Counted from the first letter of the whole stretch, positions 19,111 through 46,141 are shown. The stretch is 63,654 nucleotides of DNA, filler included, from Microthyrium microscopicum (GCA_010405405.1; 11 parts of 5 records of this genome joined end to end with filler, not necessarily neighbours in it), one strand, 5' to 3'. A program made the numbers and translations. Notes: generated by a model not told the origin, from the letters alone.

Positions 19111-19164
19111 CTTTATAATAAAATGCTTAGTATTTTCCTTATAGCGTACGCTCTATAGACAACC

Positions 19165-19446: not shown

Positions 19447-20880
19447 TACTTAGCTTTAAGGCGGCTAAAACTAGTAGAGATTACTAGTCTAACCTATCTC
19501 TATAACCTAGTCTAGTTTTCTAAATATATAGGTATTAACTAGTTAGGATAGCTATAAAGCCTTTCTATTACTAAGTAGTATTATTTAATACTACGTATTA
19601 CTTAGGTAAGTAGAGCTTTCTATAATAAAGCTTATTAAGTAGTATATTTATACTAATACTTAGTAAAATTGCTATAGAGGCATCTTAGTAGATCTTAATT
19701 AATATTAGGACTCTTTTAAGGCGATAATATTATAATAATCTTTATAACTATTTATACTTTAGCATTTATTATTAGAGATATCTTATTATACTTCATTAGT
19801 TACTTTTCTCTAATACGCTTTCTAGAGAAGATTAAAATAGTAAAGTATTTTTTATATTAATTTTTTTCTTTTAAAAAAAAGTCTTAACGTCTTTAACGTT
19901 AATACGTTTTATATTAATATATTACATTACGCTAAGTTAATTTATAGTAATATAGGTAGTTTTTAACTATTAATTAATTAGTATTTTAGTTATACTAAAT
20001 ACTATAACTACTTACTACCTAGAAATACTATATATAGAATATAAATAATATTACTACTCTTTATTAATTATAGCCTACTATAGACTACTATCTATAGTAG
20101 GCTTATTAATAATAACTAATTACCTCCTTATTTAGAGATTTTATCTTATAAATAGGCTTACTAGTTATAATAAAGTAATTCTAATATACCTTTTAAGTCT
20201 AATCTCGTTCTTTCTTTACCTATTTTTTTAACGATACTTTCCTAAGGCTATAGTTCTATATAACCTATTATACTTACGTAGTAATTATACTCTAAGCTAG
20301 GGTATAGTAATTAGGTTATTCTATATATTAGAGGAGCTTACGTTTTATAATATAGAGGAAAGTTAGTTAAAAACTAGTATATTATTTAAATACTATTTAA
20401 ACTAAATACTAGCAAGTTAGCAATTAGGAGAAAGGTTACCTAAAAACTAAAGCTAACTACTACAATTTTCTACTATAATCTTTAATTAAACTAGGCTATA
20501 TAAAGACTTTCTAATATTATTATAGCCTTATTATTATTATATATAGAGATAATTCTACGTAATACCTTATATCCTTAGGAAGTATAAGTACTATATTAAA
20601 AATAATATAAATAGTATAAGTAGGTTATAGGATTATTAACCTATATAAACTACAAGCTCTTAATTTTACTAAGAGTATTCCTATTTACAAAAAGTAATCC
20701 TACCTTAATTTAGTATTAATAGGTATATCTAATACGTTAGCCCTAACGCATAATAGAGGTCACACTCTTTACTTTAGTATAAAGTATATATTTTTTCTAA
20801 GAAGGTTAAGTTTATTAGGTAAAGACTCTAAGTAGCCTTATTAAGGTAATTTAACTATATTATTTATTAGCTAGTAGTTA
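19447..20880 (-). pseudogene. Unknown cargo gene relic(s)
   Basis: Protein-like minus-strand frames at ~19447-19920 and ~20440-20880, broken only by TAA/TAG; family not recognised. Confidence 0.3.
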
Positions 20881-22027
20881 TACTTTAGATATACCTAACT
20901 TTTCCTTAGATAGAAATCTTAATATATATTATTAATTTAAAGTAGTAAATATTATTATTAAAAGAATATAGACATAGAAGCCTCTAAAAAAATAGAGAAA
21001 CTTTATTACTTAGTATATAATTAGTAGTATATTATAAAAAAGGCAGAAATATGCTTTCTATTAATATATACTAGATAACGTAAATAAATATTAATAAATA
21101 TTATTATTAGTTTATTAATATATAGAAGCAAGCTAGTTAACTACTTCTAAATATTTTTATTTAAGTAGTATTCTCCTTAAGTTAAAAAGTACTAGTCCCT
21201 AGTAGATAAAAGTAGCAACTATAGTATATATCTAACTACTAGACAATTAAGTAGTAAAAGAGTAGCTTAGAATTAGCTAACATCTAAAAATATATTACTA
21301 GCTATAGTAGTTACTAACTAGTCGTTATACTTATTTATAAAGAAATATTATAAAATCTAAGTAGTTAAACTTTTAACTTATAGGGCTTATATATCTATCT
21401 ACTTTATTACTTAGTAATAATTAATAACTTTAAGAACAAACTAAGGGTTTATTTAGAATATCTAGGAGTATAGTATAGTAAGCCTATATTTTATATATTA
21501 TAACTAATAGAAATAAAAATACAAAAAGCGTATTATAAGCTATCCTTTGCTAAATTTAAGCTTATAATCTACGCTTTAAGTAAATTCTAAATTTACTCTA
21601 TTATCTACTAATCTACTTTAAGACAGTAGGAATTACTTTTAGCATCCCTATTTATTTTAGTAGTTATTTTTTAATATATTTACTTTTACTTATTATTACT
21701 ACGCCTAGGATAGCAAAGTAAGTATACTACTTTGCTTACTCTAGGTACTTATTATATATTTAGTTCTTTTATCTTTTTAGGAAGTTTTCTATCTATAGAG
21801 ATAGTATTATATTAATAGGTTAAAGCTAATTATAAACTTAGGTATATATTATAGGTATTAATTAGAGTATAGCTAATAGTACTTCTTTATAAAAAGATAG
21901 TTATATTTAACGTAATAGTATATTTCTACTAAAGACTATATTATATATATACTAATAGAGTACTAGATCCTTATCTACTATATTATTAAACAAGGCAATA
22001 CTTTACGTAGAAGAAATATATATTAGT

Positions 22028-22228
22028 AACAAGATAACTAATAAGTAAGAATATATCTACTTCCTTTTACTATTAAAAAGAATACTAACTTAATATTAGA
22101 TTAATAAAAATCTTAATTTAGGTAAGCATTAGCTTCTTTAGAAGCTATATTAGACCCTAATTATTCTCTTAGTTTACCTAGGAGGTAGTTAAGGTTTAAT
22201 ATTAAAAAATAAAGACTTAAAAATACTA
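22028..22228 (+). repeat. ~200-bp direct repeat, left copy, with internal hairpin 22147-22202
   Basis: Colinear with 23151-23350. Confidence 0.93.
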
Positions 22229-22420
22229 AGGAAAACTAAGAACTAAAGATATAAACTAAAAAAAAAATATAGACTTAAAGCAGACCTAGGTATATTATTA
22301 GCAAACTACCCCTTATAAGTAATAAGTTTATAAGTACTATTAATTTATAAGCAAATTAAGAGCAAGACTAACATATAGGTTAAATAAGAGCAGGACTAAT
22401 CTATAGCTTAGCTAGCTAAG

Positions 22421-23120
22421 GGAACTAAAATTAAGAAGGAATTACTTAAGTTAATATATAATAGCTTATAAAATAAGACCTTTACTAGACAAGCTAAGTT
22501 ACTTACGCTAATTAATAATAATTAGCATTAATACCTATAAAAGCAAAAAGAATATTAATCCTACTTATATTGCTTTTTACTATAAAGAGATAAAAAAGAG
22601 AGATAGCTACGTTTCTCTTTTTTATATATAATAATATAGTAACTCTTAATATAAGATTTAGATACGTTAAAACGAAATAGGATCTTTTAGTAATATAATA
22701 AATAATATTATAATAAGATTTTATTTCTAATATAATAAATAACGTTATAATAGAAATAGAATCTTATTATAATATTATTTATTATATTACTAAAAGATCC
22801 TATTTTATTTTAGCACATCTAAATCCTATATTAAGAGTTACTATATTATTATATATACTATCCCTTAATATTCTACTAAACCTTAATATCTAGCTTATTA
22901 AGGTTTAGTAAGACATATATAGTTAGGAACGTAGCTATTCCTCTTTTTTATTTCTTTATAGTAAGGAGCAATATAAGTAGAACTAATATTCTTTTTACTT
23001 TTATAGGTATTAATGCTAACTATTATTTATTAGCTTAAGTAACTTAGCTTATTTAGTAAAGGTCTAATTTTGTAAGCTATTATATATTAACTTAAGTAAT
23101 TCTTTCTTAATTTTAGTTTC
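22421..23120. repeat. 700-bp branched inverted repeat
   Basis: Outer arms 22421-22616 / 22925-23120; inner arms 22623-22736 / 22744-22857; side hairpin 22874-22888 / 22896-22910. Confidence 0.95.
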
Positions 23121-23150
23121 ATTATTCTATATTATAGTAGGAAAATTAAC

Positions 23151-23350
23151 AACGAGATAACTAATAAATAAGAGTGCATCCACTTCCTCTTAATATTAAA
23201 AAGAATACTAACTTAATATTAGACTAATAAAAATCCTAATTTAGGTAAGCATTAGCTCCTCTAGAGCTATATTAGACCCTAATTATTCTCTTAGTTTACC
23301 TAGGAGGCAGTTAGGGTCTAATATTAAAAGATAAAGACTTAAAAATACTA
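23151..23350 (+). repeat. ~200-bp direct repeat, right copy, with internal hairpin 23269-23324
   Basis: ATATTAGACCCTAA...TTAGGGTCTAATAT stem; colinear with 22028-22228. Confidence 0.93.
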
Positions 23351-23559
23351 GAGGAAGTATAATAGCTCTAGATTAATTAGGGAAATAGGCATAGTTAGTA
23401 ATACACCATTATATAAAGGAAAGGGCACGCTACTCTTAATAAGATTACGTACTACGTCTAACTTATAAGATAAAGCCTAAACGCTATAATATTACTAAGA
23501 CGAACTATATACTTTTAAGAACTTCCTATTTTACTATTTAGAATCTATAAATTATAAAT

Positions 23560-26500
23560 ATAGATTATTTTAAGGCAATCTTTAAGAAATATCTATAATA
23601 TAAAGTTATAGTCTATTCTAAATATAGCTATATAGTCCTACTAATATTATTTTCTAGATATATTAAAAAACACTATAAAAGCTTATTACTAACTACTAAG
23701 AAAGAGCTTATTTAGAAACTATAACTCGTTACGAGACTTATATAGAATATTAATAAAGTAGTATTTCTAACTAAGACTTATCTACTAATTCTAAAGATTT
23801 TAATTTATTATAATAGATAAAAATGCTTAGAGTATAGGTATATATATAAAGGCTAAGTAATTTATATTTAAGAGCATTATTAAATTAAGTATAGCTAGAT
23901 TAATCTAAATAAATAAGGTCGTTAGATAATTAAAATACAACGAAATATATTAAATTAGTATTATCTATAAAGAAATAATATTTATTATTAAAAGATCTTT
24001 ATACAGCTACCTTAGGACTAAATTATTAAAGTCTATTAACTACTAGACACCTAGTAAGCAGCTTAGCTACATCCTAAGTACAAAATAATTTAATATTAAG
24101 TATTAGCAACTTAGTAAAGAAAACAAGAAAACTAATATAAGGAATTAATTAATATAAAGAGCATAATAAGCTATCTAGAAGCTAATATATAGGTTAAGCA
24201 TATAGAATAGGCATAAATCCTATAATTATATAAATAAACGTAGCTAATTAGTTTTATACGACCTATTAACGTCTAAATAGAGGCTAAACTCGTAAAAATT
24301 AGTAGATTAGTCTAATAAGTTATCTAAAATACTATTAAGAATTTATAAAAAAATATTATTAGTTAAATAGTACTTAAAATAATTAATTAAAAGATTTTTA
24401 GTAGTAATAGCAAAGATAGAGCTAGAAAGCTAATACTAGTTTAATAATTAGCTAAAATAATTTAAAGATATAGTAATATCTAGTTATAGATTATTTAATT
24501 TGTTTAGCGCATATATAAGGAAGAATAGCTTAAGCTAACTATATCTAATAAAGAAGGCTAAAAAAAGTATTAAAACCTTACTAAAGAGAGGAAAGTAAGG
24601 CTAGACTTTAAGTTAACTAAAAGATAAGATACGCTACTTAATAATATCTAGGACTTATTAAGTATATTACTAAGTAGGGAAGTAAATAATAATTTAATAG
24701 ACGTAGAGTTTATAAATAAGAGTAAAGATAAGAGTATAAAAATAAAATTAAAAGAGGAAAGAAAAAAATTAGATAGTTTAGTTTTAGATTTATTTCTAGC
24801 TTTATTAGATTATAACATTAGTAATATTACACATAAGAGTATTTTTATTACTATAATTATAGTTATTAGTTTAGAAAAAGATAGTAGATAGAAAGATCTA
24901 TTATTATTTACTCTACGTTTATTAGCTATTATTACACTTAAGCATATATTTATATTATATAAAGCTATATACAAGAGAGTAGAAAGAATTACTAAGTTAT
25001 TAAAAAATAAAGAAATATATAAAAAAGATATAGAAGATATAGCTAAGTAGTATTATAAAATTATTAAGTAAATAGTAAAGAGGTTTATAGGATTAGTAGT
25101 AGTAAGGTATATTCTAGGTCTAATTAACTATGTCTTAAAGGTACGTATATATAGATTAAAGATTTAATATAATATAATAGATTAAGAAGTAATTAGCTAG
25201 ATAGATAATAAGTTATTATTTAGTAAGGTACGTTTCTACTTTAATTATGATTTAGAGAATATAATAGCTAAAGTACTAGTAGGTAAGGTATACTTTAGTA
25301 TATTATAACTTAGTTCTATAGTAGTAAACTTATTAGAAGAGACTAGAGAGCATCTCTATAAAGACTTATTATTATTTACAATAGTTATTAATAATAATAC
25401 TATTAAATAGTAGAAATAATATAAATTACTAATAATTTACTAGAAATATCTAGAAGATAATGTATCTAAAATATAGTAAGATTAGAATTTTTTAGTTAAT
25501 AGAAGAAATACTTAAAATAATATATTACTTAAAGAAGCTAGAGACTATTAGATTCTAGACAATTAAGTACTTACTAATTTAAAGATTAATACGAAGTTTT
25601 TACGCATAATACTAAATAAGAAGGAGATACTTAAAGTATATCTAGATTAAAAGCGGATGTTTAAGTACTAAGTAGTAATAGAGAAGATAAAAGAGAAGTT
25701 ATTAGTTCTAATCTATATAACAAGTAGCTAGCTAGCCTAAGGCATAGAAATCATTATAACAAAATTTAAAAATAGGCTAGCTAGTTTATATTAAGGAATT
25801 TTTATTAAGAATAGCTTAATAGTATTTATTACTAAATACTATAAAGGTTTTAATTTATTAGCAATCTTAAAGGTAGTTTATTAATATATACTATTAGAAG
25901 TTAGTAAATTGTTATATTATTATTTATAGCTTATAAAACCTTTTTAGGTATATATATTAGAAATAGCTAGAGTAGAGATAATAAAGAGTAAGTACTTATA
26001 GCTACTAGTAAGTAATAAAAAGGAGTATAATATAGATAAAGTAGATATTAATAATTAGGAAGAAAGGGAAGATAAAGATAGCTATATAGCTATAGAATAA
26101 GAGATATAAGGGTTAAATAATAAAATAGAAGACATAATAGTACTTAAAAAGGATAAAGATAACAATATAGTAAAGTAGGATAAAGAGAAGAGTATTTAAT
26201 TATAGTAAAAAAGTAAGGAATCTATAGAATTTATAAATAAAGAATAGTTATTAATTTAAGTTTAAAAAGTATTAATTTAAGAGATAGAGAAGCATCTAGG
26301 TATATAAATAATAATGTTAATATAGTAATATATATATATTATAATTATATATAAGTATATTAAAGATAGATTAGTAGAACGCATAATTATAAAGTAGGAA
26401 GACAATTTAGGAATAGAAGAAGTATTAAAAACTAGAGTAGAGATAAGTATAGGTAAATTAGATTTAATAGCTAATAAATAAGCTAGTTATAATACGCAAA

Positions 26501-28773
26501 CATTAGTAATAATATATATACGTAGCTATAGTAAAGCGTTTAGTATATTATATACTAGGTAAGAGGCATTTAGAAAAGTAAGTACTACTTAGTATAAGGT
26601 ATTACTATTACTATCTACGCTTAAAGAGGAATAGTAGTTAGAAAAAAGAGGAATACAAACCTTAGTAAAAGTAAGTATAGAGGATAGTATAATATTACGC
26701 TAGTCATTATTACGTTAAATTAATATAAATATATAGTTAGAAAAGTTAGCTAGTAAAGATATAAAGTTTTAGAGTATTTAAAAGCAAGGGATTAAAGTAG
26801 TTATATTACGAAAAAGTCCTATTATTATAATTATAAAAATGGAAGGAGGTAAAAGTTTATTATTTATATTACTAGCGTTATATAAAAGTAGAGGAGTTAA
26901 GGATATAACTATTATTATTATTCTATTTATTACTTTAGAGAAGAATATAATAACGAGATATAGAGATTTATAAATTAATACTATAGAGTAAAACCCTAAA
27001 GGTTAGCAAGATTAGGTAAATATTATTTTTATAATACTAAAGGCGGCTATAGGAAAGGCTTTTTTATAGTTTTTAACTAAGCAAAAGTAAATTAGTTAGT
27101 TAGATAGGATTATATTTAATAAGTATTATACAATATTAGATGCTATAGCGCTAAAGAAGTAGAGGGAAAAGATGCTAGATTTATAGCTATTAATTAAGTA
27201 AGAGATATAAATAGTTTACTTAATAGCGATATTGCTACTAAGGGATAAAGAAACGTTTAAATAAGTAATAGGTTTAATAAGTATTAATCTAAAAACTATT
27301 ATATAGCTATAAGAGTTAATAATACGTAAGAATATTACGTATAAGGTTTAAAAATAGAACTAAAAGCAAGAGAAAGAGGTAGAAGTTTTAAAGTTAGTAG
27401 TAAATAAGTTATTAGTTAAGTATAAAGAAGAGTAAGGGAAGATTATTATATATATTAGTAGGTCTATAGGAATAATTTAAAAGATAACAAATACGTTAGG
27501 CGTAGTGTATTATTATTAGACGTTATTAAAGGATATAAAGAAGAAGACATTAGAGTAGTTAATATAAAGAAGCGTATAGGTGTTTATTTATTTAAGTATA
27601 ATAGGGGTAGGTATTAATAGGCTACTAGTTTATATAGTTATATATCAAGGTAGGACGAGAATAATATAAGACTATATATAGAAAAGTAGATAAGTAGGAA
27701 GGTAAGAATAACTAAGTAAGGTAATTATATTATATTAGGTTATAAAGAATGTTTAAAGAAAGGAGCAAGATAGGTTAGATAAGTAGGCTAAGAAAAATAT
27801 AGTAAAGTTAATCTAAACTAAGCACTATTAGTAACGTATAATTAACTTAGTACTTAATAGTAATTAGACTAGATAATGATATTAAGAAGATAAAGAGAGA
27901 TATAATAATTACGACGCTAAATACTAAGAACGTAGAAGAGAGGTAGCTTATTTAAGTAAAAATAGATAAGTATAATAAAGATATTAGTAAAACTTATTTA
28001 TTTAATCTATTACGATAGCAAAGCAAATACAACCCTATTAGTTTCTAGAAGAATAAGATTAAATTACAAATAATATATAATAAGAGTTTATATAAATTCT
28101 AAAAAAAGATTATAACGACTTTAAATACGCTACATTATTACAAAGAGCCTAAGTATAAGAAGAGTAATAAAGAGATAATAAAATTACTAAGGAGAAGTAA
28201 GGAATAGTAGATATATTTTAAAAATAGAAAAATATTAGCTATTAGTTTTGTATAGTAGTTAGAGGTTATAAGGAAGGAAAAAGAATACTATTACAAGAGT
28301 ATTAAGGCTATATATTAAATAGCTACTAAAGACTAGACGCTTAATTAATTAAGAAGAGGGTAGCTAAGGCTAAAAAAGCTTATAAGGACAAAAGAAATAC
28401 GTAAGCTATATAGACATTACTTATATATTATTTTATATATAGTACGCTATAAGAACTTTATAATAGCTAGACTTTAATAAGATATAGTTATTTTAAAAAG
28501 AAATCTAGCTAAAAGAATATATAGACCTATTAATATAGTAGGCTTATTATTAGAGTTATTATAGTATTATTATATATTTATTAAGACGAGACTTCTACTT
28601 AGATAATAGAAGAAATATAAAAGGAAGGAATTATAAACGTAAAAGCTATAAAGTAGATATAGTTAGGAAGTAGAAGAATATTATATAAGATTAAGTATAA
28701 TTAAATAGTAGAACTTATAATAAAGTTTAAAGGATATATAATTACGTAGTAAGATATATATAAAGCTAAATAG
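23560..28773 (+). pseudogene. RIP-inactivated telomere-linked RecQ-like helicase (DUF3505/OrsD-like N-terminus + tyrosine-recombinase-like region + SF2 helicase + Zn-binding C-terminus)
   Basis: One frame at every point checked. Raw > de-RIP readings: VIVYSKYSYIV > VIVCSKCGYAV (~23605); YITSS*LA*GIE > HMTSGQPARGTE (25714-25749); MEGGKSLLF > TGGGKSLLF Walker A (26839); FNKYY > FDECH (27115-27129); LIAILL > LTATLP (~27220); *KSR*VGR > QESGRAGR (27679-27702); CRR...C...CDNC (~27826-27912). Start and stop inferred. Confidence 0.93.
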
Positions 28774-28946
28774 TAATCTAAGAAGCACTAGGCTAAAGGT
28801 TATAGTAAACGCATATATTATACTTTAATTAGATAACAATAAAATACTATATATATTAAATAATAATACAAGTATAGATTAGCTTATCTATATAGATAGT
28901 ATCTAAATATAGTTTAGTATATAATACTATATATATAATAGTTTTA

Positions 28947-29898
28947 ATGCAGACATTTAGCTAAGGCAAAATTTAATAGATAAGCTTAAAAAAAACTATA
29001 TAAAATGTAAGAAGTTCCTACCTACAAATTATTAAACTTAATAACAAAAAGTATTATTTATATTAAGGATAATATTACTAAGTTAGTAACTACTACTATA
29101 TAGTATTATAAAGAAATTATAATAGTTATAAGCAGAAATTAATAAGGCAATATTAGAAGGACTTTATAAGAGTTAACTATAGTAAGAACGAGGCTTTATT
29201 ATAGACTCTAAAGATAAAACTAATAAAGAATCTAGTAATCTAGATAGATTTATAGTATCTAATAATAAAGAAAAATATAATAAAGAGCAAAACGAAGAAT
29301 AAAAGTATAAGTAAGAGTAAGGAGAAGAGAATAGTAAGAAATATAATATAAGGTACGAGGAGAATAATAAGAATAACTCCTATTTACTAAGTATTATAGA
29401 TAATAGTACTAAGAATACTACAAAATACTAGCAGCATAATTAACTATAATAGTAGAAATATATTATTTTTTTATTATTACTATCCTAATACGAAAGCAAG
29501 TAAAAAGTAAGTACTAATAACATCCTAGAAAATAAGACTAAATTAGCTAATTTATAATATTCTATACGAAATAGGAATTACGTAGAAGAAGACTAAATAG
29601 TAATAGAAGTTATAGTATTTTAAATAAAACAAATAAACGAAGCTTAAATATAAGAATAATATATTATATAGCTTAAAGAGCAATTAGAACAAGTTCGTAT
29701 AAATAAGAAATATAAGTTTTATATAATAAGAAAAGATATTATAAATAGAGATAAGTATAAATAGATAGACTATATATAAGAATAAGCTATTAAAGAAGGT
29801 ATTTAAAAGGGAATTAATTTTAGGCTTTAGGAAGGAATATAACTATTAATTTAAGCAAAGAATATAAATAGTTATAATATATATTATATACCTTATAG
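28947..29898 (+). pseudogene. Unknown acidic / coiled-coil protein relic
   Basis: Frame from ~29130 de-RIPs to GFIVDSEDETDEESGDLDGFIVSDDEEEYDEEQDEE..., followed by a Q/E/K-rich helical region; 5' end uncertain. Confidence 0.55.
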
Positions 29899-30210
29899 TA
29901 TATATAATTATTAAATTTTAGTTAATAGTATTAACTAGCAAAAATCTAAGAATAATAGCTATATTTATAAAGAATAGATTTTAAGAATAATTATTATAGC
30001 TTTAATAATAAACTTAGAGAATATTTAAGACTAAGTATATATATAAGTTAAGAGAAGTAGATTTATAAATAGTAAAGTTTTTATATAGTTTTCGTAACAT
30101 GTAATAATTAGTAATATAGATTCTAATAATTATATTTAAATATTTATATATATAGTTAGTAAAGATACTTAAAATTAAAAAAGAAAAAGTAAAATATCTA
30201 GTAGTAATAG

Positions 30211-31093
30211 AGTGTACTAGCTTCTATTAAATGCAATAGCTACTACTAAGTACGATAGCTACTACTAAGTATAATAGCTCCTATTAAATGCGATAGCTAC
30301 TACTAAGTGCAATAGCTACTACTAAGTATAATAGCTACTACTAAGTATAATAGCTACTACTAAGTATAATAGCTCCTACTAAGTGTAATAGCTCCTACTA
30401 AGTACGCTAGCTTTCATTAAATACGCTAGCTTCTATTATACTTACTAGCTCCTATTAAGTATAATAGCTTCTATTAAGTATAATAGCTCCTATTAAGTAC
30501 GCTAGCTCCTATTAAGTACGCTAACTCCTATTAAGTATAATAGCTCCTATTAAGTATACTAGCTTCTATTAAGTACGCTAGCTTCTATTAAGTGTGCTAG
30601 CTTCCATTAAGTGTGCTAGCTCCTATTAAATATAATGACTACTACTAAGTATAATAGCTACTACTAAGTGTAATAGCTCCTACTAAGTATAATAGCTCTT
30701 ACTAAGTATAATAGCTTCCATTAAATATAATAGCTCCTATTAAATGCGCTAGCTTCCATTATACTTACTAGCTTCCATTAAGTATAATAGCTTCCATTAA
30801 GTGCGCTAGCTCCTATTAAGTACGCTAGCTTCTATTAAATATGCTAGCTTCTATTACACTTACTAGCTTCTATTAAGTATAATAGCTCCTATTAAGTACG
30901 CTAGCTCCTATTAAGTACGTTAGCTCCTATTAAGTATATTAGCTTCTATTAAGTGCGCTAGCTCCTATTAAGTACACTAGCTCCTATTAAGTACGCTAGC
31001 TCCTACTAAGTACAATAGCTCCTATTAAATACGATAGCTCCCATTATACTTGCTAGCTCCTATTAAGTATAATAGCTCCCATTAAGTACGCTA
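30211..31093 (+). repeat. 19-bp minisatellite, ~46 copies (GCTAGCTCCTATTAAGTAC / AATAGCTCCTATTAAGTAT)
   Basis: Units at 30501, 30520, 30539, etc. Confidence 0.97.
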
Positions 31094-31313
31094 AATCCAT
31101 TCTAAGGATCCAGTATAGAGAGGACTAAAAATTAGCTATTAATAACTTTATCTATTACGAAAAAAGGACTAGCAAGAATAAGGTAGAGATCGTTTGTAAT
31201 TTAAAGTTTATAAGCTAGTTTAGGGTCTATATATTAGGAGAAATAGTAATAGTACTTGTAAGGATAGTCGTAGTAGTAGTAATTAATATTAAAGTAGAAG
31301 TATAGATTCTTAC

Positions 31314-32992
31314 TAATAATAGGAGGAGGATTAAGAGATTAAATAGCCTTTATTATTAATTTTTTTATTACGCCAATTATCTAATGTCTTTATAATAGAC
31401 TTTATAAATTAGCTCTACACCTTAGGTAGAATAGCGTTTCTAATCTACTTTATCTTTTAAGTCTTGCCTTTTATAAAAATATAATTAGGAGAAAACTCTT
31501 AATAGTAGCTAATTTCCTAGGAACTAAGAGCTTATTAGCTATCCTAATAACTAGCCCTATTAGCTTTAGTAGTAATGTAGCTAAGTTAAGTTTTTATTTT
31601 TAAGTTATAAGAAGTCCTAGGTACATTATACTAATTAAGCATAGTATAATAATAGAAAGCATTATAAGGAATTCTTCTATAGACGTCCTAGACTATTATA
31701 TATAGAAGAAGACTAGAGCCTAATAGACTATAAGTAGAGGAAAGAAATACTAGCATAGGAACCTAATATTAGTTAGTAATAGTAATAAGTCGTTTTTATA
31801 AGCTTATAAGACTATAGTTAGTAAATTAATATACTTACTATTATATATTATAGCCTTAGTTAAGTATATTAGAAATAATTATCTAAAAGAAGTATTTAGC
31901 TTTCTCTATACTCTTAAGGCTAAAAGTATTTTCTTAAGTATAGTAAAGAGGTTATATAGTTTTTAAATAATGCTTTATAGCTAAGATAAGTACGGAATTA
32001 ATTTTATTATTTTACTAGCCTTAAGTTATTATAGCAACTATATTTATAAGTAAGAAGGCCTAGTATAGCTAAGAAGTATATATTATATTAACTTTATAAT
32101 AGTAGATAATTTTAAGCGCTTTAGATTAGTCTATATAAAAGATAAGAAAGCTATTATAGTTAGCTCTTAAGCTCTCTACTACTAACTAGTCTTTATTAAA
32201 CGCCTATATAACTTAAGCGCCTACTATTTTTACACCTATAATATTACTACTAGTACTAGCGTATCTAGATCTATACGTTATTTCTTTTTCTTAATATTAA
32301 ATAGCCTTAGAACGATTAAAAATTTTGTATCTTTCTAATAGAAGACAATTAGAGTAAGTAGAATGTAATTTAGAGAAATAAATATAATAAATCTTTTCTC
32401 CTACTAGCTTTTTCTTCTTCTAAATATTTTCCTAAACTATAAAGTAAATAGTACGGTAGAAAAGTAGGCTATTACGCTTAAGGAACTCCTTATTAAAGAG
32501 TTTTTTTATTATAATACTCTTAGGATTATAGGTAGGCTAAGCATTATAGGATTTAATAACTTCTTACTTTTATAGCTTATTGCTATTAATTAAAACTTAT
32601 AAGATAGGAACATTATTATATTACTACTCTTTTTTATACTTAGTATCTTAGTCTTAGATATTTCGTTTTAATATTACTTCATTAATATATATATAGCTAA
32701 CTTTAAAAAGATAAACGGAATAGCAAAATAATTATCTATAGAGGAATACGCCCTTCTTCTTACGAATTATTTAGATAACCTTTAGTATATCGCCTTACTT
32801 ATAGTCTTATAGTTAGAGCTCTAAAGTATTATTTAAGGTAATAGTCTATTCTTAAGAAGTATAAAAATCTAGAAACGACTTAGTAAACTACCTAGCTTAA
32901 GGTACTAATTAAGCTAAGGTTATTGTAAGCTAAACCTACATTGTCTTAATAATCTCTAAGTCTAAATTACTATTACTACTATTATCTATTAT
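31314..32992 (-). pseudogene. RIP-inactivated Masc1/RID-like C5 DNA cytosine methyltransferase
   Basis: One continuous intronless frame with motifs in order (raw > de-RIP): I TYRSRYASTSS > TYGSG(C/Y)AGAGG (32278-32246); II AFNKD > AFDKD; IV YTS*LY*AF > HASWPCQAF (PC at 32068-32063); VI *ENTF (EN at 31933-31928); VIII NYSL..*KRL > DYGL..RKRL; FLSSTYSLLGSSLL > FPSSTHGPSGSGLL; IX S*EI..*EF; X K*IRNAILP > KQIGNA(I/V)PP (~31450-31424). The C-terminal tail may run on toward 31100. Confidence 0.9.
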
Positions 32993-33166
32993 AACTACGT
33001 TATATAAGAATTAGTTAAAATTAATTTCTTTATTTAAAATATCTAATAGAATAATACTTAGGCTTCTATAAGTCGTCTTATTTATAGTAAGAGCTTATAA
33101 AAACAATCTATTAATTTTAGTAATTTTATTAGGTTTAGGCGAACTAGTTAAGTTAATAAAAACTCG

Positions 33167-34072
33167 TTAAATATAATAGCTACTACTAAGTGCAATAGCT
33201 ACTACTAAGTATAATAGCTACTACTAAGTGTAATAGCTCCTACTAAGTGTAATAGCTCCTACTAAGTACGCTAGCTTCTATTAAATATACTAGCTTCTAT
33301 TATACTTACTAGCTCTTATTAAGTATAATAGCTCCTATTAAGTATAATAGCTTCTATTAAGTACGCTAGCTCCTATTAAGTACGCTAGCTTCTATTAAGT
33401 ACGCTAGCTCCTATTAAATGTACTAGCTTCTATTAAATATACTAGCTTTTATTAAGTGTAATAGCTTCTATTAAGTGTAATAGCTCCTACTAAGTATGCT
33501 AGCTCCTACTAAGTGTGCTAGCTCTTATTAAATACAATAGCTTCTATTAAGTATAATAGCTCCTATTAAATATAATAGCTTCTATTAAATGTAATAGCTT
33601 TTATTAAGTACGATAGCTCTTATTAAGTATAATAGCTCCTACTAAGTACAATAGCTTCTATTAAATATAATAGCTACTACTAAGTATAATGGCTTCTATT
33701 AAGTACGATAGCTTCTATTAAGTATAATAGCTCCTATTAAGTGCACTAGCTCCTATTAAGTGCGCTAGCTCCTATTAAGTACGCTAGCTCTTATTAAGTA
33801 CGCTAGCTCCTATTAAGTACAATAGCTACTATTAAATATAATAGCTACTACTAAGTATAATAGCTTCTATTAAGTATAATAGCTCCTATTAAGTATAATA
33901 GCTCCTATTAAATATAATAGCTCCTATTAAATGTAATAGCTTTTATTAAATACGCTAGCTTCTATTATACTTACTAGCTCCTATTAAGTATAATAGCTCC
34001 TATTAAGTGCGCTAGCTTCTATTAAGTATACTAGCTTCTATTAAATGTAATAGCTTCTATTAAATACGCTAG
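33167..34072 (+). repeat. 19-bp minisatellite, ~47 copies, same unit and orientation as 30211-31093
   Basis: Directly visible; shares the order of variant units with the first array. Confidence 0.97.
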
Positions 34073-37000
34073 TAGGTACTAATTAGTAATAATACTAATA
34101 TAATAACTAGTATCTACTATTTTCTAATACTAGTATTTAAAATCTAATAAAAAATTATAAATTTAATTAAACTATTTTTTTATATAACTTTAAGTTTTTA
34201 ATAATATATTTTTAGGTTTATAACTAGTAATTACTACCTTTAGTTTTAATTTATTTTTTTCTATACTTTTAATAATTCTACTAGTCTAATACTAGAATAT
34301 TATTAAATTATATTTATAATTAGACTATATAACTTACTATTAAGTACTAAATTAATAGTTAAATTCTTAAATATTAAATATCTCTAGAACTATAGCCTAT
34401 ATAGATAAAATAAAAGAAGTATTAGAATTCTTATAAATAAACTAATCTAATAATATAATATTTAGCCTATATTTATAACTAGTATTAAATACTAATAAAT
34501 ATNNNNNNNNNNNNNNNNNNNNNNNNNNNNNNNNNNNNNNNNNNNNTTAATTAATTAANNNNNNNNNNNNNNNNNNNNNNNNNNNNNNNNNNNNNNNNNN
34601 NNATTATATATATAAAACTAATAAATTATAAAATAATTAATATAATATAAATAATAAAGTATAATAAAGATAAATTTAAATACTAAATATATAATTATAT
34701 ATATAAATATTTAAAATCTATTTATTAATATAAGCTTAAGATATTACTTTTATTTAAAATAAATTAATAATAAATTATATTAATAACTTTATATTATAGT
34801 ATTACCTTATATTATTAAACTTTTAGAAAGTATATATATTAGAATAGTATATACTTTTAATTACTATATATTTTAGCATAGGTTAGATATAAGTAAAAAG
34901 TATAATAGCATTTTAGGTTACTTAAAGAATAAAAATTTATAAAAGAAAAGAAAATAAGTTTTTTAGTATATATTAAGGCTATAGTTTTAATTTAACTACT
35001 ATATAAAAATAAATATATACTTAGCCTAGTAAATCTTTTACTTTATAATAGTCTAAATTTAGGTCTAATATATACTAAGCCTAGATATTAGTCTTATACT
35101 AAGATAGTAGTAAAGTAAAATTATAGATATTAAGTACGTACTTATTATTAATAATATCTTTTTCCTTAATAGTAAAGCTAACTTTAGTATATATTAGCAA
35201 TTTATCTCTAGCTCCTTAGATATATTCTTTAAATATAATTTAGGCTTTTATAGTTAATACGTACTCTATATAATAAGACTTAGACTTATTAAAAACGTGC
35301 TAGCTAATAGCTTTTAGCTTATACTTAGCTAGCTTATACTTAAGCTTAGCCTTAAGCTTAGTATAGGCTAAGATTAAGGCTTTATACTTTTTTAGCGCTA
35401 TAAGCTTCTTATTATAATAATACTTAGCTTAAGCTTAGCTATAAAATTTTAAAAAAAACTTAGAGTTAGTATATACTTAGTAATAAGATTTTAAAGAAGC
35501 CTTAAGCTTAGTATAAGCTTAGCTCTTATAGGAATAAGTAAGTAATAAAGTAATAATCTTATTATTTTTAGACTCTACTTATAGTATTAATATATACTTA
35601 GTATAAGATTATTAAACTTACTATATTTAGGAGTAAAAGAAGAAAGTAAAGTAATAGCTCTTTACTAGGTTAACGTTAGTATATACTTAGCTTAAATTAA
35701 GTAAAGGTTTAACTTATATTATATATAAATTTAGTATAACTAAGCTTATAGTAATAAAATAAGTAAGTACTAATAAGTTTATAAAAAGCAAAATTATTTT
35801 TTCTACTTAAGTTTAGTATATATAAAGCCTATATAAGTATTTTACTTACGCTAAATCTTTTAACTTATTATAAATATTAAAGATTAGAGAATTATTATAA
35901 ATATAATTATTTATATTAGTCTAGTATATATAATATATAGGCTATACTTATTTAAGCTTATTAATAAACTACTAAAATTTCTAATTCTAGACTAGAATTA
36001 TAAAAGTAAAGATATTATATATAGTTAGTATATATAAGCTCTAAGTAAAAGTTATACTTACTAATAAGAAGCGTTAACCTTAATAGTAAACTAGTTAGAT
36101 AACTTAGTATCTTTAGCTACTAATAAAGAATAAGTACGTACTAAATATAAGTAAAATAGACTTACTAAGGCTAAGGTATTAAACTTAGTAGTAGTAGTAA
36201 AGCTACTTAATTAGTAATAAGTTAAGTATAGATAAAGTATATATATACTTATAAATATCTTAATAATATAATTATAGATTATACTTTCCTTATTAATATA
36301 CTAATAGCTATTTAGGTTATAGTTAGTATATGCTAGTTTTATATAGTAATTAAACTTATAGGCTTAAAATTATAGAGAGCTTAACTAAATTAGTAAAAGG
36401 CTTATTATTTTCTATTTAAAGGTTAGTATAGCTCTTATATATACTAAGCCTATATCTATATTATTATAACTATTACTCTATTCTTTATAACTATTATAGC
36501 TACCCTATTAATTTAGTTTAAGTAAAGTATAATTAGTTTTACCTATTATAAGCTTAGTATATACTAACTATAGCCTTAATATAAAAACTTACTTATTAAT
36601 AGGATATATTTAGGATTTAAGTATTTAACTAAACTTATAAGTATAACGTTAGTATAGGCATAAAAAGGGCTATAATACGTACTAAACTTACTATAAATAT
36701 ATTCTTATTTTAGGTATATATTTCTAAGAGGGTTCTTAAAGATTTTATAGTACTAGTCTATACTACGTATAATTTTAGCTTAGGCTAAGAAATTAAGATA
36801 AATAGTTATTATACTTAAGATAAGCTTAAGCTAAAGATATAAAATAGTTAAAGAAGTAAAGAAGAGGTAATACTTTAAGTAGACTATAAATATAAGCTTA
36901 GCCTATATAGATTATTATTATGCTAGTAGTAAATATAAACGTAATATATAAATCCTTACTTTTTAAGGTTTTATAAAGTTAATATAGATTAAAAAAGAAA

Positions 37001-37849
37001 GAGGAATTAATCTTATGTATAATATATACTAATTAAGGTAAATAGTTTAAGATTAATTACTATATATATACGCAAAAGTAAGCTAGTACTACTTAATAAG
37101 ATAAATNNNNNNNNNNNNNNNNNNNNNNNNNNNNNNNNNNNNNNNNNNNNTTAATTAATTAANNNNNNNNNNNNNNNNNNNNNNNNNNNNNNNNNNNNNN
37201 NNNNNNTAATAATAATAGTTTTATAGAATAATTCTAAGAAATTAATCTTTTAGTATAATGATGCTTTTTTTAGCTTTATTATAATACTATATAATAGTAT
37301 AATCTATATAATAAAGAATAATAAGAATAATATATAACTCTTTATAGCCTATTATAAATAGGAATAGTAGAAAAGTAAGAATAATAATTAATAGTATAGT
37401 AAAGTCTTAACTAAGAATTATTAGTAATATAACTTTATATAAGCTTAAGCCTATTTTATATCTAAGAAAGAGCTTAATAATAATTTTAGTCTTTTAGGTT
37501 AACTTTCTATATAATTATTTATTATTTATATAGTATATAATATAAATTAAATAATAAGAGATTTTAAATTATAGCGTAAATATATTAAATTTTTTATAGC
37601 TTTAATTTAAAAGTATATACTAATCTTAGGAAAAGCTATAAAACTTATATTTAATAAGCTATTAGGTTTTATATTATTTAAGCTAACTATAAAGTTAAAA
37701 GTATATAAACTAAATAAACTATTAACTATTATATATATAGTTCGTTATAAGTACTTAAAGTATTCTAATTATTATTAATTAAATTTATACTCTAATTATA
37801 ATAATTATATTAAAATATATAACTTAGTTATCTTTAGTAAATAAGGAAT

Positions 37850-38120: not shown

Positions 38121-40714
38121 AATAAAGGTTTAATAAACATTTTATTACTTAAGAATTATATATTTTATAAACTACTAAGTATTATTATTATTATTATAAT
38201 ATTATTTTCTAAGTAATTTAGTTTTATTAGTATTAATTATAGACTTAAATATAATACTAGTTAGTATAATATAGAATATAATAGAATAAATTAATCTAAA
38301 AACTTTAAAAATATATATTTATATAAAATAGTATATATATAAAAAGTAAAATTATTTATTCTTTTTAATAACTTTTAATTTATAATTCTTTAAATAAAAT
38401 AATAAGCTATTAATTTTAAATCTTTTTTCTTTAGTACTTATAGTAATCTAAACTTATTTTACTTTTTTATTTTACTTTTAATATATATATCTTCTTTATA
38501 CTTTACTTTAAGCTTCTATAGAAAGTTTATCTAGTTACTAGACCTAAATATTACTTAATAATTATTTACTACTTATAGTAATAATTAAAATAGTAGCTAT
38601 CTATTTTTATTATATATCTTTATTATCTTAATTTCTAATAACTTTTTTTATTTATAATAACTTACTTAGTTAATTAATAGCTTTATTATTACTTATTATA
38701 ATATTATTATATCTTTTATTTAATTTTATTATAAACTATATACTATAGTTTTTAAGATAACTAAAAACTATACTTAACTTTTTTAGTACCTTTATTTAAA
38801 GTATACTCTTATTTAAAAAATATAAATTATAAATACTTAAAATCTTAGACTACTTCTTAACTCCTTAAAGCTATTATATTAGCTAAATTAATCTCTAAGC
38901 TAGAAAAAAATAATAATAATACTCTAGACTTAAATATAGAATTTTCCTTAAAAATTAATTAAACTAAACTTAAGTATAAAGTTTATCTAGATTTTTATAC
39001 TACTTATTAGTAAAACCTTAGTTCTACTAAATAGATTACTAGCTAACTTATAAATATTATATTACTAGACTCTTCTTAATAAGATATAATCTTAGAAGTA
39101 AATAAGTAAGTTATTACTATATAAGTATATAAAAACTAAATTTTTAAATAAAGCTTTAGTATCCTTTTAAAAGTAGTTAGGTTATTAGTACTAGTATTAA
39201 TAATAGAAGAGAAGATATAAGTATAATATTTTAATATATATTAAGATATTTATAAGGTACTAAATTTATAGCTATCTATATAATATATATTATATTATAG
39301 TTTAGTTAGAATATAGTAAAAATTTTCTCTTTTTAGCTATAAATAGTAAAGCTTATAATAAAAAGATAATTATTATATAAAGATATAAAATATTTCTTTT
39401 TAAATAAATAGAAAGAAAAATAAGATATAAGTATAAATAATATATTATTTAAGAAAAGTAGAAATAAAAGTTTAATATAGGCCTAATAGAATTTATAGTT
39501 TTATTAGAATATTTTTAATTTCTTTATTTTTAAGTAAGTAAGACTTTATAATTAGAGCTTTTAGATTTACTCTTTATATCCTAATAAGTATAAAGCTAGG
39601 TTTCTTTTAGTATAGTATATTTTAAATATTAATACTTAATCTTTTTAAGTTATTATAAATAAGTATATTAATATTAGTTAATTAGCTTTTATCTTACCTT
39701 TTCTATATATTAAGCTTACTCTACTAATACTACTTATTATCTTCTAGCTAGCTCTTAATTAATAATTATATTAGCTTTAATAACTAATTAATTCTTATTC
39801 TACTATAAANNNNNNNNNNNNNNNNNNNNNNNNNNNNNNNNNNNNNNNNNNNNTTAATTAATTAANNNNNNNNNNNNNNNNNNNNNNNNNNNNNNNNNNN
39901 NNNNNNNNNTATATTATTTTATAATAGACTTATACTACTAAAATATAAAGTTAGAGTTTATAAAGTTAATAATAATATTATTATTCTTTAAGATACTTAA
40001 GTAAGGCTTTATAACTAGCTTTAATTAGCTTTACTACTTATATTTTAACTAATCTATTTAGGATAGTAATTATAGTAATATTAAACTACTAAACTTCTTT
40101 ATTAGTATAAGAGCTATATCTAGTATAAAAGTAATACTTTTAACTTAATATATATTACTATAAAAGAAAACTACTATTACTTAGCTTTCCTAAAAAATAC
40201 TATATTTAAAGGCTATTACTACTATATATAGCTATATTATTTTTTTTTACTTATACTTTTAAAATACTCTAGAAGTTTAAGAACGTTTAAAAAAATACTT
40301 TAAGTATTTACTACTTAGTACTTTTTATTCTCTATAAAGTCTACTTTATATAAAAAAAAGTTAGAGATATTATAATAGTAATTTATATACTACTCTATTT
40401 TAACTACTATAAAAGTTATCTTTATAATTATTATCTTAGCTTTTCTATATTTTTACCTTAATTATTATAAAACTTACCTTTATTATTATTACCTTCTTTT
40501 TTATTATTACTTTAACTATTATAGAATTTACCTCTATTATATATTCTATATATTTTAAAGCTTTTAATATTTTAGTTAGCTTTATAAGTAAAGTAGTAGG
40601 ATTATATTAAAGTTTAAAAGTAGTAAAAAAGAAAGAGATAAAAATAAAAGATATAGCTAGGCTATTATTAGAGCTATTAAGTAAATACTAGAAGAAGTAT
40701 AATTAATAATAATA

Positions 40715-41410: not shown

Positions 41411-43464
41411 ATTATAATAACTATAGTAAAATATAAAAGACTTATTAAGTTAAAGAATATAAAAATTAAAGTAATGAGAAAATAAACTCTAAATAAAGAT
41501 TATTTTTAACTATATTAAAATAGTAAGTATTTAAAGATTTAGTAGTTACTAAAATAGTTATTAAGGTATAATAATTTTTCCTTTTTAATTAAAATAGTAT
41601 TCTTTCTAAATTTTTCTTTTAATTTTAACTTAATTTAATTTCTTTTCTTTCTCTTTATTCTATTTTCTACTTAGCTTAAGTATAAAAAAACGCTTATTAA
41701 AGTTATTTTAATAGCTTTTATATAGTATAATACTAAAATACTACTATATCTAAAAAAATATATTTCTTTATAGCTATTTAAGACTTTAAACTTTATATAT
41801 AAAGTAAAAGAAACTTTATTTTTTTATATTATAAATATTCTTTATATAAAAGATAAAAAAGATTAATAGCTAAGTATAAGTAGCTTATTTTTCTTCTTTA
41901 CTTTACTTTCTATACTTATTTAGTTCCTTTAAATTAATTATATAAAATATATACTTACTTTATAGTCTCTTTCTTTATAATAGATATAATAAATAGAGTT
42001 TTAAGTAACTCTTATTTTCTTAAATTAGTAATAAACTATATATATTTATATACCTATCTACTATAAAAGTATAAAAAAGTTATAAAGCTTTATTTTATTT
42101 ACTATTTAGTTAATATTATACTATTATATATAGTAAGACTATTTTTTATAAGCTTATATTTATTAAGATATAGAAATAACTATATAGTTTTATATAAGTA
42201 AGTATTATTTCTTATTTATATATACTTAATAAATAATTTTAGTTATATATAGTATATAAATAATATATATATAAATATTTAGTATAGCTATATAACTTTT
42301 ATACTATTAGAGTTATAAATATTAAGTAGTTTAGTAATATATTTACTACTAGTAAATAGAAAAAGATATTTTAAGTATATCTTTCTAAATTAGAAGTTAA
42401 CTAAGTAAGTTTACTATTCCTAAACTATAATTAACTTAGTAAAGTAGTTAAAGATATAGATTCTTAATACTAAGAAGTATTTACTAATAAAATAGTCTTT
42501 TCTAAGTAAACTAAGTAAAGTATTTAACTAATTCTATATTATATTATAAAAGAAAAGTAAATAACTTATCTTAAAAGAATTTTTTATTAAGCTAGTAAAT
42601 TATAGTAAAGTTATAAGAAACTAAGAGATTACCTTTAGCTACTACTCTCTATAATAAATATCTTAGTAGCTATTTAGTTTATATTAATTAAGATAATATC
42701 TAATACTAGCTATAATAATTANNNNNNNNNNNNNNNNNNNNNNNNNNNNNNNNNNNNNNNNNNNNTTAATTAATTAANNNNNNNNNNNNNNNNNNNNNNN
42801 NNNNNNNNNNNNNNNNNNNNNTATTAAAAGCTAGTACTAAAGCTAAAAAAGAATATAAGCTATTTATTATTATTTTCTAAATACTTTTAGAGAATAAAGT
42901 AGATAGCGTTCTAGTATTAATAGAGCTATAATTAATAAGAATGTAGGTTTTAGTAGTAAGATAAATAAATAAACTAAAAATAATATAATATAGTAGCTTA
43001 GTATACTAGAATAACTATTAGATTAAGAGAATAAAGTAGAAGATAGTATAGTAAATTAAGTTAATAAATTAGATTATTAGCTTATAGGTTTATATTATTT
43101 TAATTATAAGAGTATAGTAATAATAGCTAGTTCTAAAATTAATATTTTTTAGAATTCTTAATATTACTTAACTATCTCTAGATATCTTATATTCTACTAA
43201 ATATACCCTTCTAATACCTAACTAGTTATAAAGTCTAATAAAATACTAGACTACTTATTTTAAGTTAGCATATCCTATAGTTTTATAACATATATATTAG
43301 CTATATAGATATTATATATTTTCTAACTTTACCTATTTATAATTAACTATTTACTAATATTAATATTTATATTATAGTATATATAATAAATAATAAGATA
43401 ATAAGAATAATATAATTAATATACCCTATATAATTAATTTAAATAACTATAATATATTACTATA

Positions 43465-43712: not shown

Positions 43713-46141
43713 TAAGTAGTTACTATTATTATAAGAAGTATATATTAATATATTATTCTATACTAACTACCTACTCTAAACTACTACTTCCTAAACTTTT
43801 ATTTTCTAACTAGTTTATAGACTAGATAATTTACTTAAAGTCTTATACTTTACAACTTTACTTTTAGATTTATAATAATTATCTTTAAAGGTATAGTCTT
43901 TAAGAAATATAATATAATAGGTATAATAACTTTTAGGATTCTTCTATATATCTTTTGCTTTCTATATAAATTACTAATATTCTTATCTATACTTAATATA
44001 TACTAAATATATAGTAGTATCTAGTATATATTTACTAAAAATTATTTCTATTATATAGCTAATATTACTATATAGTTTTTTTTTTTAAGATATTAAGATA
44101 TTTTATTTCTTAGTAGTCTAAGACTACTATTTATTAAGTATAGTAAGGCATCTTATATCTAGACTTAGCTTTATTACTATAGAACGTAGCTAGCTAAGGT
44201 TAATTCTAGCTATTAAGCTAGAGTTAAATTTTTATATAAGTACGTTATACTTAGCCTTAGTAAGGATAGAGGTAAGAAGAGAGAGAGGGTTAGGATTAAT
44301 AAGAGTCTTATTGTCTTTATTATTATTATTATTATTATCTATTAGCTTATTATTACTAAAATTAAAGGGTAAACCTAGGGAAAGAAATAGCTTAGGTAAG
44401 CTAGATATAAGAAAATTTAGAATAAAAAAAAGACTCTCTTTTTACTTAATAAGTATAGCTAAATAAGCTTAGTAAATAGCTTAGTAAGTATTAAACTTAA
44501 CTTAGTACTAACTATAATTATTACTACTAATATTTATAAGTAATATACTAGAACTTATAGATTATTAAAATTATAATGCTTTATAATATAATTAGAAATC
44601 CTATTCTTTAAATAAGTATATTTATTTTTTTAGTATAATATACTATAAAAAGTTAACTTTACTACTTTAATAAGCTAAGATAGCAAAAAACTATTAAATA
44701 GCTAATAAATAAAGATAATATATATATTAAATATAAAATAGTATTAAGAGTATATTTTTCTTTTAAGAGTAATAAAAGATATAAATATATAAAGTTATAA
44801 AGTTAAGAAATTAAAGTTTAAAAGTTAAGAAGTATAAAAGCTTTAAAAAGACTATAATATAGTAGTCTTATTATTTTAAATACTTAGTCTAACTAAGAGT
44901 ATTAGCTATTAAATAGTTATAATTACTTAATTTAGTAATACTTAGTTAGCTTATTATATCTTTATAAAGCCCTTATTTAATAAAAGAGATAGAATAAAAT
45001 TAGTTAATATATAAAGAGTATTAATAGCCTAAGAGTTATATTAAAAAAATATAATAAAGACTTAAAGCTATACTTTCTTAAAAGTAGTCTAGTTAAGTAT
45101 AAAGAAAACTACTTAAGAGAAGACTTAAAGATATATAAAGATAAAAAAGAGAAGAGAATATATTTAGTATAGTAAAAGATATNNNNNNNNNNNNNNNNNN
45201 NNNNNNNNNNNNNNNNNNNNNNNNNNTTAATTAATTAANNNNNNNNNNNNNNNNNNNNNNNNNNNNNNNNNNNNNNNNNNNNTAACTCTTAATATAACTA
45301 TATATAATTCTTAATATAGCTATATATAATCCTTACTAGTATTTAAAAGTTAAAATAAATTAATTTAAAGTTATTACCTAGACTAGATATACTAGTTAAA
45401 ATAGAAAAGAGTACTACTATATATAGAATTAACTAACTTATAGCCTAAGATACTTAAAATACTTTATCTAAGAATATTACTAAAAATAGATTACTTAGCT
45501 CTACTCTATCTTAGCTAAAGACTACTAGAATATTTATATATTAGTATAATAATCCTCTATCTTTTTCTAAAACTATCCTTTTACTTAATATAAAGACTTA
45601 GAGGAGTATTATAATTACTACTCTCTTAATATTAAATCTTAATACGTTTTTATTATTACTATTATTTAGTTCTAATAATATACTAGCTTTTAATATAAAA
45701 CCTTTATTATTAATATTTAGCTCTTATTATACTATTAAGAATATCTAAAGTAAAGTCTTTATTACCTTAGCTTACGCTATTAGTATAATTATAATAAACT
45801 TAATTATACTATTTAATACTATATAAAAATTATATTTATTAGAATATTTTTATAAAATTTAAGATATAATATACTAATATATTATATAGAGTAAATATAA
45901 ACTAGCTATCTTTATAGAAGTATATTTTTAATCTATAACTAATTAATAGATATATTTAAATTAAATTCTATAGAATTTTTAATTTTCTAATTCTTAAACT
46001 AGTTAGCTAAACCTAGATAACTTTAATAAGAGTCTACTACTTATAAAAGTAGTTAATTATTAGATATAATATAAGTTTAAAAAGACTATAGTACGAATTA
46101 TTTTTATTATTATTACTAAGAAGTACCTTTAGTAAAGTAAT

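Follow-up and report, generated by a model that had tools for sequence, protein, structure and literature searches.

The stretch of DNA analysed here (the window, 63,654 nucleotides from Microthyrium microscopicum, GCA_010405405.1) contains the relic of a cytosine-5 (C5) DNA methyltransferase gene, which lies between two arrays of one minisatellite and bears the marks of repeat-induced point mutation (RIP). This relic occupies the minus strand at 31094-33166 as one unbroken frame, collinear with residues 123-815 of P0001, an 815-amino-acid (aa) protein recorded as 'S-adenosyl-L-methionine-dependent methyltransferase [Microthyrium microscopicum]' (KAF2671800.1). Its stop codon, TAG (31091-31093, minus strand), stands directly after the last sense codon and doubles as the first bases of an array unit. 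A preliminary description, made from the sequence alone, had set the extent at 31314-32992; the frame is indeed found there, while those limits have to be replaced by the span given above plus the stop, which makes the relic about 400 bases longer.

The frame holds 69 stops (44 TAA and 25 TAG) and one 2-codon deletion (P0001 639-640), with no frameshift and no intron; it had been called intronless, which holds over the copied part. With the stops read as X, the minus frame from 33151 matched PF00145 below threshold (E 0.019, 14.8 bits), and a read-through translation (TAA as Q, TAG and TGA as W) matched it at 29.3 bits (cut-off 22, E 7.6e-7) in two collinear stretches, residues 386-456 on profile positions 88-157 and residues 518-588 on positions 254-324. 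A search with the read-through protein returned a single protein at E<=0.01, P0001, with E 4.8e-184, 54% identity and 100% query cover (6012 candidates scored, 5.8 billion clusters). P0001 searched against the window by tblastn gave one match only, aa 123-815 on 33166..31094 (E 6e-154). The degraded C5-DNA-methyltransferase frame that was first described is thus present, on the minus strand. Codon by codon (n=691), 331 positions of the relic are identical to P0001, 302 are explicable by C>T/G>A changes alone and 58 need other changes; the identical and RIP-compatible codons together (633) compare with a mean of 118 and a maximum of 146 for shuffled P0001 (200 shuffles), in a test that is permissive, as about 17% of shuffled codon pairs pass it.

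The collinear alignment to P0001 located motifs I, II-like, IV, VI, VIII, IX and X plus the FPLPTHGPEGSGL linker in the order in which they had been listed. On the minus strand, a conserved N-terminal module that is common to RID-family proteins (P0001 228-286; alignment and BLASTP) lies at 32675-32851. It is followed by motif I for S-adenosyl-L-methionine binding at 32219-32275 (YGSGCAGAGGDVTGAKMAG in P0001, YRSRYASTSSNIIGVKIVG in the relic) and by motif IV at 32042-32089, where P0001 has ...TSWPCQAFSPAN and the relic ...TS*LY*AFLLIN (asterisks are stops), the catalytic Cys codon having become Tyr. Motif VI (31916-31948) keeps its triad ENT intact at 31925-31933 (YT*ENTFSL), and motif VIII lies at 31772-31828. 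The short target-recognition region of about 80 codons covers 31538-31771, with the FPLPTHGPEGSGL linker at 31709-31747; motif IX, supported by the alignment and the second Pfam stretch, is at 31490-31537 and motif X at 31415-31450 (KQIGNAVPPKVW in P0001, K*IRNAILPKV* in the relic).

The changes that separate the relic from P0001 have a strong context preference. Among the 343 transitions that can be uniquely inferred, A follows 142 of 177 C>T changes and T precedes 145 of 166 G>A changes, so that 287 of 343 stand in CpA/TpG context, and such transitions alone can explain 302 of the 360 differing codons. The RIP indices of the relic are 1.72 for TpA/ApT and 0.17 for (CpA+TpG)/(ApC+GpT). This CpA>TpA preference is the signature of RIP and, together with the 69 stops, supports the first description of the gene as killed by RIP. 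The catalytic PCQ now reads L-Y-stop. Judged by its sequence, the relic is a pseudogene that retains the motif order but, with PCQ replaced in this way, has lost the function.

Both flanks consist of a 19-bp minisatellite detected by Tandem Repeats Finder. The left array (30211-31090, about 46 units, TpA/ApT 2.27) is built of the unit TAGCTCCTATTAAGTACAA and its variants, and the right array (33167-34063, about 47 units) has the identical minisatellite in the same orientation; the two are direct repeats of about 0.9 kb each, with 77-85% identity to each other by blastn. The units differ mutually mostly by C/T and G/A at fixed positions, and therefore RIP also struck the arrays after they had formed. 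The left array begins right after the TAG at 31091-31093, and one base upstream of codon 123 lies the start of the right array. The break points were compared to see whether an insertion had divided a single array: on the left the repeat ends 8-11 nt into a unit, and on the right it restarts at unit position 19. Microhomology at the gene ends (TAAGT on the 5' side and CTA..TCC on the 3' side, both resembling the array unit) was considered as well, and the resemblance was judged too weak. The copy starts at codon 123, three codons past the probable start Met120, with no start codon at the junction and no upstream region.

Four public sequencing runs (one sample, possibly the assembly's own source data) were aligned to 29800-34502. 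Logan contigs of about 2.2 kb span 30975-33205 with zero differences in the runs compared, and both array/gene junctions are therefore real in the read data. In addition, a 197-nt contig in runs X2 and X4 matches 31056-31178, that is, the left-array end and the last 85 nt of the gene, with 22 differences, and past 31178 it runs on as CGGGGCGG(TTAGGG)n. The eight differences of this contig that are listed are all A>G or T>C, corresponding to less RIP, and seven of them lie within the gene, where the telomeric version restores the P0001 residue (S, P, Q, H) at four sites and differs from it at three. The array/gene junction thus also exists, in a second and less RIPped version, at one or more chromosome ends, where a telomere cuts the gene off after 85 nt.

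The relic had also been described as lying within or next to repeated DNA. This is correct in that it sits between two repeated arrays and that its left junction has a telomere-capped second version, whereas the 2.08-kb segment 31091-33166 is single-copy within the window by blastn and tblastn; a permissive blastn with the 2-kb body turned up nothing in the window beyond matches at about 58% identity, which base composition accounts for. Within the gene body, depth rises at 31684-31840, 31998-32311 and 32626-32782, where additional diverged copies, or matches to AT-rich sequence by chance, may be responsible; the first of these bumps, which belongs to a 22-nt side of a joint to 34312, is probably spurious.

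Family of the host gene

RIP in Neurospora depends on the enzyme encoded by rid, and a requirement for RIP, MIP or sexual development is a functional mark of the RID/Masc1/DmtA family. This family is reportedly treated in Freitag 2002 and Malagnac 1997. The passages available from Grognet et al. (2019, PMC6709928) characterise the Masc1/RID type by a triad that reads EQT or EET instead of ENV and by a target-recognition region some 80 aa long, and describe PaRid as free of introns. In P0001, the gap from the end of motif VIII (residue 587) to the start of motif IX (residue 668) is 80 aa, which agrees with the short region of this type. No Pfam family but PF00145, which scores 107.5 bits in P0001, reached E<=0.01 in this protein or in seven relatives, except for one sub-threshold chance match in P0006, and at the same threshold no BAH, RFTS, CXXC or PWWP domain was found in these proteins.

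A phmmer search of 1.84 billion representatives with the relic gave 119 matches at E<=1e-3, including 'RIP defective [Neurospora tetraspora]'. By BLASTP, P0001 and the Neurospora 'RIP defective' protein share 28% identity over 563 aa (E 1e-44) in an alignment that runs from P0001 residue 210 and takes in the N-terminal region and the FPxPTHxP linker. This linker is nearly invariant across an alignment of 40 RID-family proteins, and there are near-invariant columns in the N-terminal part too, in agreement with the N-terminal likeness to RID proteins noted at the outset. The N-terminal module itself, with the consensus G.TVEL...G.FLRI...LRG....R...NEV, corresponds to no Pfam family at E<=0.01. 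A profile made from the 40-protein alignment found 394 proteins at E<=1e-10; the matches listed (120 of 394) come without exception from filamentous ascomycetes, and some bear the names 'RIP defective' or 'DmtA'. Matches of P0001 to solved structures were far weaker, the best being a bacterial-type enzyme at 7e-14 and DNMT1 at about 1e-12, over 120-190 aa. A word-based homologue search with the whole of P0001 returned the protein itself and one weak match, its search words having fallen in the non-conserved N-terminus.

Motifs IV and X were both present in 48 proteins drawn from the phmmer matches, P0001 and a few added cluster members. Their motif VI triads are EQT (20), EET (16), ENT (6), EQV (2) and ENV (1), with three unclear, so that 42 of 48 have E, then Q, E or N, then T. 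P0001 and the relic have ENT, which combines the canonical N with the family-typical T, the published family triads being EQT and EET. ENT was read in motif VI of P0001, P0002, P0004, P0008, P0010, P0016, P0020, P0102, P0117 and P0119, and six ENT proteins, including those of Microthyrium and Tothia, fall in a Microthyriales/Venturiales clade. Both orders belong to the Dothideomycetes.

Two quick maximum-likelihood trees, supported by the Shimodaira–Hasegawa-like approximate likelihood ratio test (SH-aLRT) only, rooted on three unnamed ENV-type proteins and drawn without DIM-2, DNMT5 and Masc2, agree in joining the relic with P0001 at 99% SH-aLRT. The pair sits in a 97% clade with Tothia fuscella and several metagenomic proteins, joined in the named tree by Venturia nashicola, and separate clades hold the Pleosporales (Pyrenophora 'DmtA') and the Sordariomycetes (Neurospora and Colletotrichum 'RIP defective'), with each named species appearing once. 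Since P0001 groups with Venturia and Tothia in a tree that follows the classes, with one protein per named species, it behaves as an orthologue. The trees place the relic and P0001 among the RID/DmtA clades, and the assignment to Masc1/RID is upheld by the trees, the Neurospora match and the short target-recognition region. Taken together, these comparisons support P0001 as a member of the RID/Masc1/DmtA family and point to the parent gene as the orthologue of Neurospora rid and Aspergillus dmtA; within its lineage P0001 looks like the ordinary rid orthologue, one whose motif VI is an ENT variant. Residues 1-119 of P0001 have no counterpart in the Venturia and Tothia proteins, which begin near Met120, and the P0001 gene model is probably over-extended at its 5' end.

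Contig and window

The window has an overall G+C content of about 19% and extreme RIP indices (TpA/ApT 1.62, (CpA+TpG)/(ApC+GpT) 0.08). It was assembled from small unplaced AT-rich contigs by ten artificial linkers, each made of 44 N, TTAATTAATTAA and 44 N, at 3431-3530, 34503-34602, 37107-37206, 39810-39909, 42722-42821, 45183-45282, 47128-47227, 55319-55418, 59987-60086 and 61494-61593. As the linkers are artificial, pieces on the two sides of a linker are not physically linked. The contig bearing the relic is 3531-34502, its end being marked by the linker at 34503-34602. Other runs of N in the window are 10 N at 1814, 8712 and 51536, 947 N at 48096-49042 and 500 N at 53803-54302.

Beyond the right array, the last 440 bases of the contig (34064-34502) reach, in run X1, 5-9 times the word depth of the gene and occur in many variant contigs; they are probably a multi-copy repeat. 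Farther to the left, a nested palindrome occupies 22417-23124, with outer arms of 200 nt (22417-22616 and 22925-23124, 91% complementary) and inner arms of 113 nt (22623-22735 and 22745-22857, 93%) set 9 nt apart. Between 24000 and 30000 the plus strand has a strong purine excess (GC skew reaching +0.55, AT skew reaching +0.22), a bias that a long coding relic would be expected to show. No Pfam family was found when all three plus frames of 22001-30201 were scanned; minus frames and 3531-22000 lay outside the scan, and RIP may mask relics. Long arrays of a 194/389-bp tandem repeat (89-92% matches) are found at 47405-48095, 49043-50203 and 51546-52274, on other pieces of the window.

Origin of the copy

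We consider it probable that the relic is a partial, never-functional and RIP-destroyed duplicate of the host rid gene, lodged in repeat DNA whose junction with the gene occurs a second time at a chromosome end. A promoter-less copy of rid would have landed in minisatellite DNA of a telomere-borne kind, or would have been duplicated together with it, after which at least two junction copies would have existed. RIP may then have been set off by the arrays, by the duplicated junction and possibly also by the native gene, and would have run through the arrays and the intervening 2-kb segment over many sexual cycles, turning CpA into TpA on both strands. We infer both this order of events and an origin by segmental duplication of a subtelomeric type rather than by transposition. 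The intact P0001 gene and the relic likely occur together in one genome.

Several observations weigh against this account. Both limits of the copy fall at the limits of the reading frame, a coincidence that would not be predicted from random segmental duplication. The window itself is without telomere repeat (0 matches to (TTAGGG)3 with <=3 mismatches), and the word depth of the telomeric contig, which is four to five times that of the main version (222 vs 46 in X2, 295 vs 77 in X4), does not equal copy number. A native gene more than about 80% identical to a coexisting copy should have been RIPped too, yet it would have to have escaped. Finally, of the 58 codons (8%) that need non-RIP changes, 33 lie within P0001 600-699, an interval that overlaps the target-recognition region and continues into motifs IX and X, and at 20 of these 58 sites seven relatives fit only the possible ancestors of the relic. 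For example, at position 588 all seven relatives have R and the TAA of the relic is derivable from CGA, while P0001 has L. The reverse is seen at 12 of the 58 sites, where the relatives fit only P0001; this comparison with the relatives is again a permissive test. The 58 codons speak against a recent duplication of the P0001 sequence as it is at present, and the pattern suggests that the relic and the living gene have both diverged from a common ancestor, with the relic not recently derived from today's sequence.

The same codons are also an argument for a different source, in which the copy came not from the resident gene but from another rid allele, old or introgressed, that entered chromosome-end DNA and was amplified and RIPped there. 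We hold this to be unlikely. In its favour are the concentration of the non-RIP codons in the target-recognition region, the fit of the relic to the consensus of the relatives at sites where P0001 departs from it, and the three of seven listed sites at which even the less RIPped telomeric fragment differs from P0001; the part of Moeller et al. (2021, PMC8016269) available to us also reports that Zymoseptoria has three rid alleles that are highly distinct and carries non-native copies of dim2 in subtelomeric positions. On the other side, RIP compatibility is a permissive measure, an old duplication followed by fast evolution of the native variable region gives the identical pattern, and no second allele or donor species was seen. 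A fuller version, in which rid was copied into chromosome-end minisatellite, spread to several ends and was destroyed by RIP while the native gene survived, leaving the relic as the fossil of a distinct allele with a different target-recognition region, appears decidedly unlikely. If the fossil reading were true, it would imply diversifying evolution or introgression of the DNA-recognition part of RID.

Another possibility, which we regard as improbable, is that P0001 belongs to another genome and that the relic is the only rid of its lineage, killed in place by RIP leaking from the adjacent repeats, so that RIP would have eliminated its own enzyme. Leakage of RIP into neighbouring single-copy DNA is established in the text seen of van Wyk et al. 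(2021, PMC7882544), and non-RIP differences in 8% of codons could represent divergence between species. Against it, 5.8 billion clusters yielded no close relative other than P0001, one would expect a native gene to retain its start codon and flanks instead of meeting the arrays at both frame ends, and the junction is present a second time at a telomere.

Least tenable, and in our view very improbable, is the proposal made at first that a transposable element carried its own divergent RID-like methyltransferase as cargo, for self-methylation or as a decoy or anti-defence factor, and that the relic is one dead copy of it: the whole window is RIP-type, AT-rich repeat DNA and the right flank has several-fold the word depth of the gene, but, once RIP is allowed for, the copy is near-identical to the host orthologue (633 of 691 codons identical or compatible) and forms no separate lineage, has neither start codon nor upstream region, has no second copy of its body in the window, and is bordered immediately by minisatellite arrays, with no Pfam family in the plus frames of 22-30.2 kb. 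A repeat search of the contig 3531-34502 found no long terminal repeats or terminal inverted repeats bracketing the gene, only the two direct arrays, and the inverted pairs touching the arrays are three short ones (62-63 nt, 71-73%). None of the hallmarks of transposon cargo, namely terminal repeats, a target-site duplication and a transposase or reverse transcriptase alongside, was found in this repeat search and in the Pfam scan of the plus frames of 22001-30201. The notions of a divergent paralogue and of element-borne cargo are accordingly not supported, and a transposon-encoded anti-defence methylase gains no support from a start-less near-copy of a host gene.

Comparison with known systems

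In the literature searched, where the word 'rid' is unspecific and the orthogroup supplements of PMC12543289 lay outside the search, we found no description of a RIP-killed rid copy. RIP is described as leaking into adjacent unique DNA, and in repeat-linker-repeat RIP the single-copy linker stretch acquires CpA>TpA mutations, according to the excerpt available of PMC11969663. The 2.1-kb segment here, placed between two direct 0.9-kb arrays, resembles such a linker; unlike the linkers in the parts of those sources at hand, it carries a mutation load far above that of one cross, and the mutations may have struck it in its position as a linker, because it duplicates the native gene, or in both ways. 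In the histone H3 case, a hAT element mediated the amplification of a housekeeping gene that was then RIPped, as far as the text seen of PMC6710886 goes. A host gene likewise appears here as RIPped extra copies in repeat DNA, in contrast with that case in that no transposon structure was found around the rid copy.

With the RID/Masc1/DmtA/PaRid proteins, as presented in the part of PMC6709928 mentioned above, the relic and P0001 have in common the order of motifs I-X, a target-recognition region some 80 aa in length, the absence of BAH, RFTS and CXXC domains, an intronless copied part, Thr as the third residue of the motif VI triad and an N-terminus alignable with Neurospora RID. They differ in having ENT, also found in Tothia and several metagenomic relatives, instead of EQT or EET, and the window copy is a pseudogene. 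The relic would preserve, in legible form, an older or alternative version of the rid sequence, and its non-RIP differences cluster in the target-recognition region. If this pattern holds across isolates, it would offer a way to study how fast DNA recognition by RID evolves and how the native gene escapes RIP.

Amplified, RIP-inactivated copies of dim2 in the wheat pathogen Zymoseptoria tritici are reportedly the subject of Dhillon et al. 2010. In the portion available of Moeller et al. (2021, PMC8016269), non-native subtelomeric copies of this gene share transversions, are RIPped and sometimes stand beside an intact native gene, and an old or introgressed origin is proposed for the non-native 'transversion allele'. 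On our analysis, the relic would be a new example of a known process, for which dim2 in Z. tritici is the closest precedent. As far as that portion allows the comparison, a host cytosine methyltransferase gene appears in both fungi to have entered, as a copy, repeat DNA that is associated with chromosome ends, RIP transitions and some non-RIP differences occur together in the copies, and an intact native copy can coexist. A search for subtelomeric amplification in the present data gave one extra junction copy that runs into (TTAGGG)n, with the window copy free of telomere repeat and the native locus outside the data.

The two cases differ in several respects. The gene here is rid (RID/Masc1/DmtA) rather than dim2, and it is represented by one full-length relic and one telomere-capped fragment, as against the 23 copies reported for IPO323 in the text seen; the flanks are a 19-bp minisatellite, whereas those given there for Z. 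tritici are long interspersed nuclear elements; and the native gene appears intact, with no loss of function implied. The relic looks like a commonplace outcome of duplication and genome defence, except that what RIP destroyed here is a copy of the very gene that encodes its enzyme. After dim2 in Z. tritici, it may represent a second case of a DNA methyltransferase gene drawn into chromosome-end-associated repeat DNA and killed there.

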